Assembly: GCA_964444995.1 (NCBI GenBank)
Contig: CAYUJH010000001.1
Coordinates: 1-26,204 of the forward strand
Origin: an uncultured Roseobacteraceae bacterium
Lineage (GTDB): Bacteria > Bacteroidota > Bacteroidia > Cytophagales > Flammeovirgaceae
Length of the DNA: 26,204 nt
Reading direction: 5' to 3'
The notes under the pieces were generated by a model. The model was not told the origin of the DNA. It saw only the letters and a list, made by a program, of their open reading frames with translations, and did no database searches. Below are positions 2,705 through 10,630 of the stretch, one piece after another; positions within the stretch are counted from its first letter, which is position 1; each line of letters opens with the position of its first letter. The position numbers were made by a program, and so were the translations under genes.

Positions 2705-3838
2705 ATGAGAGCCTACCTAGACAGCGCCGCTACTACCTCGCTCGCTCCCGAAGTACTCGAAGCAATGCTGCCCTTCCTGCGCGACGGGTTCGGCAATCCC
2801 TCCTCTACCCACTCCCACGGGCGCGAAGTCCGCAGTGCTGTAGAAAAAGCCCGCCGAACAATAGCCGAACAGCTCAATGCCTTCCCTTCTGAAATCTATT
2901 TCACCTCCGGAGGCACAGAGGCCGACAATACCTTTCTGCGAGGTACAGTTGCTACGCAAGGCACACAACACGTTATCAGCAGCCCTTTAGAGCACCACGC
3001 CGTATTGCATACCCTTGAAGACCTCGCACATAGAGGCACTATTCAGCTTCATTTTGTAGAGCACGACCAACAGGGTGTCTTCAACCTCGACCACCTCGCC
3101 GCCCTATTGGGTCAATATCCCCATGCCCTCGTTTCGCTCATGCACGGCAACAACGAATTGGGCAACCTCAATCCACTTGCCGCCATCGCCGAACTTTGCA
3201 AAGCACACGGCGCTACGTTTCATAGCGATACCGTGCAGACGATTGGCTATTATCCCCTCAATACCAAAGAGCTACACGCGCAGGGGCTGGTAGGTGCCGC
3301 CCACAAATTCCATGGGCCCAAAGGCGTAGGCTTCCTGTATCTGAAAAAAGGCTTTAAAGTATCGGCATTTGTTACCGGTGGTGGCCAAGAGCGCAACCTA
3401 CGCGGGGGCACTGAAAACACCTATGCCATCATAGGCATGGCAAAAGCCCTCGAACTCTCTTTGAGTACACGCGAAAAAGCCCTAGCCCACATGCGCCAGC
3501 TCAAAGCGCAAATGATAGCCCTTTTACACCAACATCTGCCGACTAACTCGTTTACGTTCCATGGTCTATCTGCCAACGAGGAGAGCAGTCTGCCTTCGGT
3601 GCTGAATGTAGGTATCTCGCACCCTGCAGCTGGTATGCTGCTCTTCAACCTCGACCTACAGGGCATCTCTGCTTCTGGGGGAAGTGCCTGTTCGAGCGGT
3701 TCGCAGGTAGGCTCTCACGTAATCAGCGCGTTAAATCTGCCTGTAGGCTATACACCGGTGCGCTTCTCGTTTAGCAAATACACCACCCTTGCCGAGGTAA
3801 AATATGCCGTAGAGCAACTGGCCAAACTACTCTCCTAA
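2705..3838 (+). CDS. iscS: Cysteine desulfurase, group I (IscS/NifS-like), PLP-dependent
   Basis: 377 aa. YLDSAATT, GNPSS, FTSGGTEADN, PLP-lysine motif AHKFHGPKG, GGGQERNLRGGTEN, catalytic Cys in SGGSACSSGS. Confidence 0.92.
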   Translation: MRAYLDSAATTSLAPEVLEAMLPFLRDGFGNPSSTHSHGREVRSAVEKARRTIAEQLNAFPSEIYFTSGGTEADNTFLRGTVATQGTQHVISSPLEHHAVLHTLEDLAHRGTIQLHFVEHDQQGVFNLDHLAALLGQYPHALVSLMHGNNELGNLNPLAAIAELCKAHGATFHSDTVQTIGYYPLNTKELHAQGLVGAAHKFHGPKGVGFLYLKKGFKVSAFVTGGGQERNLRGGTENTYAIIGMAKALELSLSTREKALAHMRQLKAQMIALLHQHLPTNSFTFHGLSANEESSLPSVLNVGISHPAAGMLLFNLDLQGISASGGSACSSGSQVGSHVISALNLPVGYTPVRFSFSKYTTLAEVKYAVEQLAKLLS

Positions 3839-3923
3839 GCAGGGCGTACACGCATACACCTGCGCATTTGTAGGCGTGCTCAACAGAAGTTGGTGATATT
3901 GAGAAGAAAAAGGTAAAATATTT

Positions 3924-3954
3924 TTTGTATTTTAAAAAAACAGTGCTACCTTTG
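3924..3954 (+). promoter_or_regulatory. Bacteroidota primary-sigma promoter (-33 TTTG / -7 TACCTTTG) driving the rplP-rplQ operon
   Basis: TTTG at 3924-3927, 19-nt spacer, TACCTTTG at 3947-3954 followed by CA. Matches the Bacteroidota consensus TTTG-N19-21-TAnnTTTG. Confidence 0.85.
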
Positions 3955-3959
3955 CACTC

Positions 3960-4107
3960 CCTTATGAGATACTATGCGTATTTAACATGCGCAAAAGTCT
4001 CGTTCCATTACGCATTCAACAATACTGTAGTATATAATCTGAAAAGAAACTCAGCCGTAATTTCGGTTGGGTGATGAGACGTTTTTCTACTTTAACAAGC
4101 ATCTGCT
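3960..4107 (+). promoter_or_regulatory. Structured 5' leader of rplP operon (putative cis-regulatory RNA)
   Basis: About 150 nt between promoter and rplP ATG, with complementary segments GAGAT(3966-70)/GTCTC(3997-4001), TGCGTA(3975-80)/TGCGCA(3988-93), CTCAGCCG(4050-57)/CGGTTGGG(4064-71). Confidence 0.4.
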
Positions 4108-4527
4108 ATGTTACAACCAAAAAGAGTAAAATTCAGAAAAAAGCAGAAGGGCAGGGTGCGCGGAGTCGCACAGCGTGGCCATACAATTTCCTTTGGTAGC
4201 TTTGGAATCAAGTCGCTAGAAGCTGGCTGGCTTACCTCGCGCCAAATTGAAGCTGCGCGTATAGCCCTAACCCGCTCTATGAAAAGAGAAGGTAAGGTAT
4301 GGATTCGCATCTTCCCCGATAAGCCTATCACCAAGAAGCCTGCCGAGGTACGTATGGGTAAAGGTAAAGGTGCTCCCGAGTACTGGGTAGCCACGATACG
4401 CCCGGGCACAATTCTTTTCGAGTCCGACGGTGTTGCCCTTGAAGTAGCAAAAGAGTCTATGCGTCTTGCTGCTCAGAAACTTCCCGTTAAAACAAAATTC
4501 GTTACACGCGTAGATTATAACGGTTAA
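4108..4527 (+). CDS. rplP: 50S ribosomal protein L16 (uL16)
   Basis: [16 protein letters not shown]...[23 protein letters not shown]. Confidence 0.99.
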
Positions 4528-4533
4528 TAAGCC

Positions 4534-4860
4534 ATGAAACAACAGGTAGTAGAATATAGAAACATGAGTGTTGCAGATTTGCACGGAAGCATAGCCGCAG
4601 AAGAGCGCGAGCTACAACGCCTAAAGTTTGCCCACGCCATCACTCCGTTGGCAGACCCCAGCCGCATCACGAAGACCCGCAAGGCTATTGCCACGATGAA
4701 AACCATCCTCAGCGAGCGCGTAGCCGAAAGTCTGAGCACAAAAATCGCAAGTGGTGAAATCACCCTAGAGAACATCTATGCTCACTTGGGTAAAGGAGAG
4801 TATCCTATCACATTAAGAAAATCGAGAGTTAAAAGCCTGTTTGCCCAACACGGTAAATAA
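4534..4860 (+). CDS. rpmC: 50S ribosomal protein L29 (uL29) with about 46-aa C-terminal extension
   Basis: Core aa 1-62 (ELQRLKFAHAITPLADPSRITKTRKAIATMKTILSER) in the syntenic slot between rplP and rpsQ; the ORF continues to 108 aa. Confidence 0.95.
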   Translation: MKQQVVEYRNMSVADLHGSIAAEERELQRLKFAHAITPLADPSRITKTRKAIATMKTILSERVAESLSTKIASGEITLENIYAHLGKGEYPITLRKSRVKSLFAQHGK

Positions 4861-4871
4861 AATAAACGAAG

Positions 4872-5129
4872 ATGGAAGAAAGGAAACGCAGAAAAGAAAG
4901 AATAGGCATGGTAGTAAGCAACAAGATGCAATCTTCGATTGTCGTTGTGGTGGAAAGAAAGCTCAAACACCCTATCTACGGGAAATTCACCAAAAAAACT
5001 ACCCGATTCATGGCTCACGATGAGCAGAACCAATGCCAAATCGGCGATAAAGTTCGCATCATGGAAACGCGCCCCTTGAGCAAAAATAAAAGATGGCGTC
5101 TTGTAGAAATCATAGAAAGAGCGCGCTAA
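4872..5129 (+). CDS. rpsQ: 30S ribosomal protein S17 (uS17)
   Basis: [14 protein letters not shown]...HPIYGKF...HDEQN...[14 protein letters not shown]. Confidence 0.99.
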
Positions 5130-5174
5130 TACCCACTATACACACAAAGGTTTCAAGTTCAAATTTGTTTAGAG

Positions 5175-5543
5175 ATGATACAGCAAGAATCAAGATTAAC
5201 CGTAGCCGATAATAGTGGTGCCAAAGAAGTGCTTTGTATCCGCGTACTCGGAGGTACAGGCAAACGCTATGCCTCTGTAGGAGATAAAATTGTAGTAACC
5301 GTTAAGTCGGCCATTTCTTCGAGCAACCTCAAGAAAGGAACAGTCTCTAAAGCTGTCATTGTGCGCACTAAGAAAGAAGTGAGAAGAAAAGACGGTTCGT
5401 ACATTCGCTTCGAAGACAACGCCGCCGTATTGCTCAACAACAACAATGAGCCACGTGGTACCCGCATCTTCGGGCCTGTTGCGCGCGAGTTGCGTGAAAA
5501 GCAATTCATGAAAATAGTTTCGTTAGCTCCTGAAGTATTGTAG
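5175..5543 (+). CDS. rplN: 50S ribosomal protein L14 (uL14)
   Basis: [17 protein letters not shown]...[10 protein letters not shown]...[13 protein letters not shown]. Confidence 0.99.
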
Positions 5544-9310: not shown

Positions 9311-10630
9311 ATGAAAAAATTCATCACAACCATCAAAAACATATTTTCCATCGAGGAATTGCGTAACCGAATCCTATACACATTAGGGTTGTTGGCTATC
9401 TTTCGCTTTGGTTCGTATGTAGTACTTCCCGGCGTGGACCCGAGCAAACTTGTTGAACAGGGAGGCATTTTCGGTATGCTTAATGTATTTTTAGGAGGTG
9501 CTTTTAGTAGAGCCTCCATCTTTGCGTTGGGCATCATGCCGTACATTTCTGCCTCTATCGTGATCCAATTACTTACAGTGGCAGTACCTTATTTTCAGAA
9601 GCTGCAAAAAGAAGGCGAGTCGGGGCGGAAAAAGATTAATCAAATTACCCGCTTTCTTACTATTGCCATCACGCTCGCGCAGTCTTCGGCCTACTTGAGT
9701 ACCACTATCCCTTCCGATGCTGTTCTTGTAGAGCAGTCGTTTTTTATTCTCTCTTCTATGGTAATTCTTACTTCAGGCACTATTTTCTGTATGTGGCTTG
9801 GGGAACGTATTACCGACAGAGGTATTGGAAACGGTATTTCTATGCTCATTATGATAGGCATTATTTCGGGTTTCCCCGGCGCAATCATTGAGGAAGTTGC
9901 TACACGTGGTACAGGAGGCTTCTTGCTCCTTGTCTTAGAGATGTTAGCCTTGTTCTTTATCGTGATGAGTGTGGTACTACTTACACAGGCTGTGCGTCGT
10001 GTACCTATTCAGTATGCCCGTCAGGTTACGAGTGGAAAGCAGACAGTGCGCGGTCAGCGTGCATACTTACCCTTAAAAGTGAACTCTGCCAACGTAATGC
10101 CTATCATTTTCGCACAGTCGCTCATGTTCTTGCCCTCTTTGTTGGCCGGTTTGTTTGCCCAAGACAACGATGCGGCACGCTACATAGCGCAAAGCTTCTC
10201 GGACTTTACTTCGTGGGAATACAATGTAACGTTCGCGATTTTGATTATTGTTTTCACGTTCTTCTACACGGCCATTACGATTAACCCTAATCAAATGGCA
10301 GAGGACATGAAACGTAGTGGTTCTTTTGTGCCCGGCGTGAAGCCCGGCGAGGAAACCTCGAACTATATCAGTTCAATTTTGGATAAAATCACCTTACCCG
10401 GTGCGCTCTTCTTGGCTGTAGTAGCGGTCTTACCTGCGTTTGCCAATGCTGCCGGCGTTAGTTTTAACTTTGCACAGTTTTACGGTGGCACCTCGCTGAT
10501 TATCATGGTGGGGGTAGTGCTCGATACTTTGCAACAAATAGAAGGCTATCTGCTAATGCGACACTACGAGGGTATGATGAAGTCAGGCAAGTTGCAGGGC
10601 AGGTCGTCTCAGAATGTAGCGGTAGTATAA
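9311..10630 (+). CDS. secY: Preprotein translocase subunit SecY
   Basis: 439 aa, multi-TM. SIFALGIMPYISASI, WLGERITDRGIGNGISMLI, LPLKVNSANVMPIIFA, GGTSLIIMVGV. Confidence 0.99.
   Translation: MKKFITTIKNIFSIEELRNRILYTLGLLAIFRFGSYVVLPGVDPSKLVEQGGIFGMLNVFLGGAFSRASIFALGIMPYISASIVIQLLTVAVPYFQKLQKEGESGRKKINQITRFLTIAITLAQSSAYLSTTIPSDAVLVEQSFFILSSMVILTSGTIFCMWLGERITDRGIGNGISMLIMIGIISGFPGAIIEEVATRGTGGFLLLVLEMLALFFIVMSVVLLTQAVRRVPIQYARQVTSGKQTVRGQRAYLPLKVNSANVMPIIFAQSLMFLPSLLAGLFAQDNDAARYIAQSFSDFTSWEYNVTFAILIIVFTFFYTAITINPNQMAEDMKRSGSFVPGVKPGEETSNYISSILDKITLPGALFLAVVAVLPAFANAAGVSFNFAQFYGGTSLIIMVGVVLDTLQQIEGYLLMRHYEGMMKSGKLQGRSSQNVAVV

Follow-up and report, generated by a model that had tools for sequence, protein, structure and literature searches.

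Lineage-specific extensions of ribosomal proteins are widespread, and few of them have a known role. Extended forms of uL29 are known in mitochondria and in eukaryotic cytosolic ribosomes. Among bacteria, the uL29 of Mycoplasma pneumoniae is about 100 aa long and carries a C-terminal extension (PDB 7OOD; Xue et al. 2022, PMC9534751). This extension forms one long helix on peripheral rRNA, more than 30 Å away from the exit, and the same authors described ribosomal-protein extensions of such a kind as common across bacteria (PMC9534751). The extension of chloroplast uL29c overhangs the exit, forms a pocket for a Phe residue of uL23c, and may come into contact with nascent chains or factors; its helix is acidic, charged, and variable in length (bioRxiv 10.64898/2026.07.03.736309). 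In E. coli, uL29 itself is a docking site: SRP uses its N-terminal helix, which is clamped by the NG loops of Ffh, and the SRP NG domain also contacts the C-terminal tail of uL23 beside uL29 (PMC4737761). Loop 6/7 of E. coli SecY binds almost only uL29, at residues overlapping the SRP site (PMC4737761). Here, we describe an extended uL29 encoded in a stretch of DNA of 26,204 nucleotides (hereafter, the window) and compare it with these systems.

The long form of uL29 and its predicted fold

The rpmC gene occupies positions 4534..4860 on the forward strand of the window and encodes 108 aa plus a stop codon, as determined from the open reading frame list, the sequence itself, and matches to Pfam PF00831 and TIGR00012. 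The protein matched PF00831 with 60.5 bits (cut-off, 24.5; E = 1.6e-16) over aa 7-62 and TIGR00012 with 47.3 bits (cut-off, 22.6) over aa 8-62; a preliminary description of this DNA had placed the end of the core near aa 62, where both matches indeed stop. The canonical domain (aa 7-62; 4552..4719, +), delimited by Pfam and AlphaFold2 (AF2), consists of an N-terminal helix and a two-helix hairpin. Beyond the Pfam limit lies an extension of 46 residues (aa 63-108; 4720..4857, +), which includes the segment IASGEITLENIYAHLGK; its coordinates and the sequence of the open reading frame are the same as in the preliminary description, which had reported an extension of about 46 aa. The rpmC gene is placed between rplP (uL16; 4108..4527, +; PF00252, E = 1.5e-54) and rpsQ (uS17; 4872..5129, +; PF00366, E = 5.2e-33). 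The rpmC stop codon is at 4858-4860 and the rpsQ ATG is at 4872, so that the spacing read from the sequence is the 11 nt given earlier. The source genome, a 60%-complete MAG, contained a single uL29 match when searched with the window protein.

The structure of the protein was predicted by AF2 with an alignment of 19 uL29 loci from the family to which the window belongs. The model had a mean pLDDT of 85.9 and a pTM of 0.71, and contained helices at residues 2-9, 13-36, 43-73, 81-86, and 96-106. Over the tail, the block pLDDT values were 88, 85, 76, 79, and 80, which makes the predicted fold one of moderate to good confidence. When the tail was folded alone, the same three helical segments were obtained with a pLDDT of 74.8. 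The tail can be divided into four parts. The first (aa 63-73; 4720..4752, +) prolongs the second hairpin helix (AF2 43-73) and has L67, K70, and I71 as conserved residues. The second (aa 74-86; 4753..4791, +) comprises a G-x-hydrophobic-T turn with a helix N-cap (G74, I76, T77, and N80) followed by the short helix 81-86; column conservation here was 87% for T77, 77% for N80, and 83% for L85, and F or L occurs at positions 84-85 in most family members. The third (aa 87-95; 4792..4818, +) is a loop that was modeled as coil; its hydrophobic positions 90 and 94 are conserved, and Pro is frequent. The fourth (aa 96-108; 4819..4857, +), RKSRVKSLFAQHGK, is a basic amphipathic C-terminal helix (AF2 helix 96-106) in which I99, K100, L102, and I103 are conserved. 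The net charge from aa 90 onward is +5 in the window protein and +1 to +6 in every family member, and the first half of the extension is neutral to acidic across the family. In the predicted fold, the second hairpin helix would be prolonged by about 10 residues and followed by a Gly/Thr-capped turn, a short helix, a loop, and the basic amphipathic helix, and the conserved hydrophobic positions 67, 71, 76, 81, 84, 85, 90, 94, 99, 102, and 103 would together make up the core of a small helical module. The earlier proposal of a folded, lineage-specific appendage and not a disordered tail agrees with this prediction (tail pLDDT 76-88; pTM 0.71).

The core of the model superimposed on solved bacterial uL29 structures over about 60-65 residues at about 0.9 Å (Foldseek and VIA); for the T. 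thermophilus, A. baumannii, and P. gingivalis proteins, VIA gave Z scores of 9.8-11.4 at an rmsd of 0.8-1.3 Å. Structure matches that reached into the tail came from other extended uL29 proteins, and the aligned part was mostly the shared core. The tail itself resembled no known domain. A Pfam and NCBIfam search with the 46-aa extension, at E values up to 1, gave zero matches, and nothing significant was found in a sequence-profile search of the PDB. Weak matches to PDI, Hsp90, and LotA had only a G-x-[LI]-T-x-E-N helix-cap motif as a common feature. The non-uL29 profile matches were repeat proteins and were rejected as homologues, since they are explained by several copies of the G-x-[LI]-T-x-E-x-A cap motif that also occurs in the second part of the tail. 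With the tail alone, the best VIA match had a Z score of 4.0 and the matches were to generic three-helix units (RecBCD, RecX, and HTH-like); SAP domains, which were checked as a helix-extension-helix candidate, were absent from these matches, and the sequence match to the Ku70 SAP domain had an E value of 4.1. Two possible origins of the tail were also considered. An internal duplication of the uL29 hairpin may be the source but is not supported: hhalign aligned the tail with the core over 42 ungapped columns at a probability of 29%. Fusion with a small downstream gene was rejected, as rpmC and rpsQ are 14 nt apart, with no extra open reading frame, in Rhodoflexus caldus, the closest relative without the tail.

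Compared with the described extensions, the predicted module is similar in kind and different in architecture. The M. pneumoniae protein and the long form are both bacterial uL29 proteins with a length of about 100 aa, and in both the residues added at the C-terminus have secondary structure, predicted in the present case; the mention of mycoplasma long forms in the preliminary description is confirmed by the published structure (PMC9534751). However, the M. pneumoniae extension is a single helix, whereas the tail described here is predicted to have three helical segments and a hydrophobic core. VIA aligned only 67 residues of the model with M. pneumoniae uL29 (7ood_w), and the tail profile (see below) found no Mycoplasma uL29 among 1.84 billion representative proteins and the PDB sequences. 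The chloroplast uL29c extension, represented by PDB entries 5MLC and 5H1S, is likewise helical and C-terminal, and the matches reaching into the tail included 5mlc_Z and 28jw_X. In contrast to the acidic and variable chloroplast extension, the tail is constant in length and ends in a basic helix; the model matched uL29c over 75 residues at 3.7 Å, poorly beyond the core, and no uL29c was matched by the tail profile among the 1.84 billion representatives. The best match including the tail was a eukaryotic uL29 (RPL35), the microsporidian chain 6zu5_LHH (Z = 9.9, 83 residues, 2.5 Å). This alignment covers model residues 1-105 but consists mostly of the shared core, and 5xy3_h and 7qca_LHH behaved similarly; Foldseek global superposition on several eukaryotic uL29 chains gave an rmsd of about 15 Å. 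The tail has no sequence similarity to eukaryotic uL29, making convergence likelier. In the ESM Atlas, clusters annotated as uL29 from Planctomycetota (about 113 aa) and Myxococcota (about 106 aa) are of similar length, but their feature scores of 0.78-0.80 were at chance level and they were not recovered by the extension profile, and these extensions are therefore probably independent. By the sequence and model comparisons made here, the tail is without a detectable sequence relationship to the known uL29 extensions, and its predicted architecture differs from theirs.

Conservation and phyletic range of the extension

When 5.8 billion proteins were searched with a word index, five relatives of 106-108 aa with 61-66% identity were obtained, which had a lone one-residue gap and many invariant residues in the tail. 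In a set of 40 related genomes, the uL29 of the GTDB family to which the window belongs (f1), where found, lay in open frames of 105-123 aa and mostly aligned with the window protein to about residue 100, and the alignments of the other 16 Cytophagales families ended near residue 60-70. Exact look-ups of the long forms returned Flammeovirga pacifica, F. agarivorans, F. aprica, Limibacter armeniacum, Rapidithrix thailandica, Chondrinema litorale, Sediminitomix flava, and MAGs named 'Flammeovirgaceae bacterium'; f1 is thus the family Flammeovirgaceae. RefSeq names these proteins plainly as 50S ribosomal protein L29, and a literature search found no paper mentioning a Flammeovirgaceae uL29 extension. 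A phylum-wide survey of stop-to-stop frame lengths was uninformative because an upstream open frame inflates the lengths. Among 80 named Bacteroidota loci in a species-level genome collection, spanning Spirosomataceae, Hymenobacter, Cyclobacteriaceae, Cytophagaceae, Chitinophagaceae, and Flavobacteriaceae, uL29 was about 60-70 aa in 79. The lone long form in this set came from a MAG (L021, CAYMYI010000003.1) and is 64% identical to the window protein. That MAG, deposited as 'uncultured Roseobacteraceae bacterium', appears to belong to the Flammeovirgaceae genus of the window, and the deposited name is probably wrong.

Across 19 Flammeovirgaceae loci, uL29 was 104-110 aa long and the tail could be aligned almost without gaps, where a tail both unconserved and fully disordered, or a stop codon at about aa 63-66 in relatives together with a sequencing error, had been named as the finding that would speak against the extension. 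Among 30 long forms, the information per column was 2.29 bits in the extension versus 2.84 bits in the core; K70, T77, N80, F84, L85, and K100 were well conserved, and the hydrophobic positions of the tail recurred with helical periodicity. Substitution rates were estimated by the Nei-Gojobori method. In a close Flammeovirga pair, which was the sole unsaturated pair with enough substitutions, dN/dS amounted to 0.09 in the tail and 0.10 in the core. The tail dN/dS of another close pair was 0.90, a value resting on very few changes. Of four more distant pairs, three had a tail pN far lower than pS.

A tail-only profile was built from the aligned extensions and run over 401 Cytophagales genomes. 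It matched 27 of 30 Flammeovirgaceae genomes, 26 of them at E values of 1e-14 to 1e-21 and one at 1.5e-3. In the 370 other Cytophagales genomes, three matches with E values of about 0.007 were obtained, all to unrelated frames and at chance level; the 17 genomes of family f2 and the 19 of family f5 yielded nothing with this profile. Two of the three Flammeovirgaceae genomes that were missed are incomplete and lack any uL29 match, and the third (G008) has a diverged tail; strong divergence of the tail was seen in two genera of the family (G008 and G013). Against 1.84 billion representative proteins, the uL29 long forms recovered by the profile numbered only 14, with lengths of 103-109 aa (about 105 aa). 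On the strength of these genome and protein comparisons, the tail was shown to be translated in frame, of fixed length, under purifying selection, and restricted to Flammeovirgaceae. The lineage named earlier, Cytophagales, was thus too broad; the actual range, from the 27 of 30 genomes against the 370 others, is the family. A single origin in the Flammeovirgaceae ancestor is part of the explanation that we consider the most probable.

The operon split and its leader RNA

In the window, the S10 operon is split between rpsC and rplP (3839-4107), and gene neighbors at loci L001-L019 and L160 indicated that this split is common to f1, f2, and f5. None of the 19 Flammeovirgaceae loci had rpsC upstream of rplP, whereas one locus of another family did. 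In 10 of the 19, a class-V aminotransferase gene precedes the rplP promoter, an identification made from the C-terminal end of the upstream ORF, which resembles the Pfam-typed gene of the window. In f1, f2, and f5, rplW and rpmC were on different contigs or at least 47 kb apart; in every other family in which both were found, the distance between them was about 3 kb.

The region upstream of rplP (3924-4009, +) contains a promoter and a leader RNA. The promoter is of the Bacteroidota type (TTTG, about 19 nt, TAnnTTTG), with boxes at about 3924-3954, and the RNA element lies at about 3966-4001, within a covariance model hit at 3945-4009. The leader is conserved, follows the promoter directly, and combines a 4-bp stem (GRGA/UCYC) and a 7-bp hairpin with a conserved internal loop whose 5' side reads WACUN and whose 3' side ends in AAG. 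Of the 19 family loci, 17 have this element, which lies 78-162 nt ahead of the ATG of rplP. In the alignment, 99.5% of the cells were paired and 8 of the 11 pairs had compensatory changes; 0 of 500 shuffles reached the covariation score, slid controls gave 30-51% pairing, and RNAalifold independently produced the same structure. Window positions 3700-5300 had no match in Rfam 15 at E values up to 1, and a simple pattern search for the literal leader motif in 23S rRNA found none. Each genome with a match to the covariance model contained exactly one copy, located upstream of rplP wherever the position was checked (f1 and Rhodoflexus caldus).

The leader was present in 20 of 24 f1 genomes among the 40 relatives. 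In a 151-genome sample of the order, it was found in f1 (8/9), f2 (7/9), and f5 (8/9); all 123 genomes of 19 other families lacked it. R. caldus, a member of f5, has the split and the leader together with a uL29 of 64 aa. This pattern implies that the split and the leader belong to a three-family clade and that the uL29 tail came later, in Flammeovirgaceae only. Co-occurrence of the tail with the operon split, which had been suggested at the outset, was accordingly not borne out: a coupling of the tail to the split and leader is ruled out by their presence in three families and the presence of the tail in one. The RNA is a candidate ribosomal-protein leader, undescribed so far, of the split-off rplP-rpmC-rpsQ... 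operon. It may be a more valuable lead than the tail, being a candidate new autoregulatory element for ribosomal proteins that would have been created by the operon split.

Exit-site partners and the possible role of the tail

The molecules surrounding uL29 at the exit site were compared between Flammeovirgaceae and other Cytophagales. In 23S rRNA from five genomes of the family, four other Cytophagales genomes, and E. coli, no group-specific indel column was detected; only seven fixed substitutions were seen between the five and the four, and two of these, at positions 23 and 517 of E. coli, resemble a single compensated base pair. Given the lack of a family-specific 23S indel, the uL29 tail neither replaces nor matches a change in rRNA length. 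The length of uL23 was 95-97 aa both in the family and in other Cytophagales. At the uL23 C-terminus (loci L105-L129), Flammeovirgaceae have ...(D/E)-x-Y-(E/D)-(N/G)-... (YEN, YEG, or YDN), and most other Cytophagales families have ...D-F-Y-S-x-I. Compensation in uL23 was rejected, the length being constant and the C-terminal signature minor. No discriminating column was found in Ffh among 18 family and 12 other sequences. In one 77%-complete family assembly, a contig (G023:C231, locus L101) carried a uL23 gene and a SecY-like gene that look alphaproteobacterial, the latter being 38% identical to the window SecY, which suggests a contaminant contig.

The window secY gene lies at 9311..10630 (+), with loop 6/7 at codons 237-261 (10019..10093), as determined by alignment with E. 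coli SecY. The alignment comprised 19 Flammeovirgaceae and 9 other Cytophagales sequences together with E. coli. On it, the loop boundaries follow the E. coli numbering. R357 lies in loop 8/9 (PMC4737761). Seven positions (E. coli numbering: 65, 250, 259, 273, 350, 396, and 407) separated Flammeovirgaceae from the others; discrimination was complete at 259 and 273, both in loop 6/7, and at 396, and at least 80% at 65, 250, 350, and 407. Four of the seven are in ribosome-binding loops (250, 259, and 273 in loop 6/7 and 350 in loop 8/9), and these two loops make up about 15% of SecY. Position 273 is Gly in E. coli and in the 9 other families sampled and Asn in all 19 family members. At 259, Gly or Asp is replaced by Lys, Arg, Thr, or Gln, at 250 Lys by Arg, and at 350 Gly by Asn; R237, R247, and N261 of the window SecY correspond to E. 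coli positions 250, 259, and 273. The tip of loop 6/7 (codons 240-244 approximately; E. coli 255/256 approximately) also carries a Gly/Lys-rich insertion of 1-7 residues, common to f1, f2, and f5, that is, to the clade with the operon split and leader. This insertion predates the uL29 tail, as it is also found in f2 and f5, which lack the extension. Moreover, since one clade amounts to one evolutionary event, the SecY signal is only suggestive. An effect of the tail on factor docking or rRNA contacts, as raised in the preliminary description, therefore finds no counterpart in Ffh or in a 23S indel, and the part concerning docking is left with the suggestive substitutions in the SecY loops.

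We consider it probable that the uL29 tail serves the ribosome as a structural appendage, placed on its surface at the rim of the exit site. Given that uL29 folds as a helical hairpin, the tail would emerge beside the N-terminal helix, from the hairpin end that bears this helix, and would lie at the rim of the exit tunnel, on the 50S face turned to the solvent. This end of the hairpin holds the region used by SRP and SecY (PMC4737761), in keeping with the location near SRP and SecYEG assigned to uL29 before. The module would be permanent, with its basic last helix resting on the 23S rRNA backbone, a neighboring protein surface, or both, as its charge and the Mycoplasma and eukaryotic precedents suggest. 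In this position, the appendage would enlarge and reshape the platform that serves SecY loop 6/7 as well as other factors at the exit site. Judging from the SecY pattern and from the precedent of chloroplast uL29c, the bulk of the tail would alter the surface facing the translocon, and the tail may thereby reshape translocon docking.

Other explanations have to be weighed against this structural role. A tolerated tail without function, or an artefact of MAG assembly or annotation, might be suspected from the 60% completeness of the source genome and from the failure of known domains to match the extension. Such a reading is contradicted by the conservation data and is, in our judgment, highly improbable: the extension also occurs in cultured species whose genomes are complete and among RefSeq proteins, its alignment is nearly gap-free, dN/dS is about 0.1, and the hydrophobic and cap residues are conserved. 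It is also very unlikely that the tail is an RNA-binding module exerting autogenous control of the rplP-rpmC-rpsQ operon through the leader. The split, the leader hairpin, and the extension all occur in Flammeovirgaceae, and the last tail helix is basic, as such a module might be; however, the leader and the split are also found in f2 (7/9) and f5 (8/9), where the tail profile was blank in 17 and 19 genomes, respectively, R. caldus combines both with a 64-aa uL29, and two genera of the family (L010 and L019) keep the tail with no detectable leader.

The tail could instead serve chiefly as a docking adaptor for SecYEG, and perhaps for YidC or trigger factor, with the SecY loops co-adapted to it and bracing of the ribosome a secondary matter. 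We regard this as doubtful. In its favor, the contacts of SecY loop 6/7 are almost exclusively with uL29 and overlap the SRP site (PMC4737761), four of the seven signature positions fall within loops that make up about 15% of SecY, and the Gly to Asn change at 273 is found in 19 of 19 family members, with 259, 250, and 350 also altered. On the other hand, the SecY changes come from a single clade and not from independent events, Ffh has no matching change, the loop-tip insertion is older than the extension, as f2 and f5 possess it, and the M. pneumoniae uL29 extension lies more than 30 Å from the exit (PMC9534751). The further step, that Flammeovirgaceae rebuilt the ribosome-translocon interface, with the uL29 tail and the residues of SecY loops 6/7 and 8/9 forming a co-evolved docking surface, is in our view rather unlikely. 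The structural appendage is the reading that we prefer, and the interest of the tail would rise if the co-variation in SecY marks a real interface.

The tail can be used as a sequence marker for Flammeovirgaceae. As it is compact, of fixed length, predicted to be folded, and confined to one family that includes cultured species with complete genomes, and as it is part of a protein on which SecY and SRP dock, it provides a clean natural test case for the remodeling of the exit-site platform. If the ribosome-translocon interface has in fact been rebuilt in this family, a ribosome lacking the tail would couple poorly to its own SecYEG.
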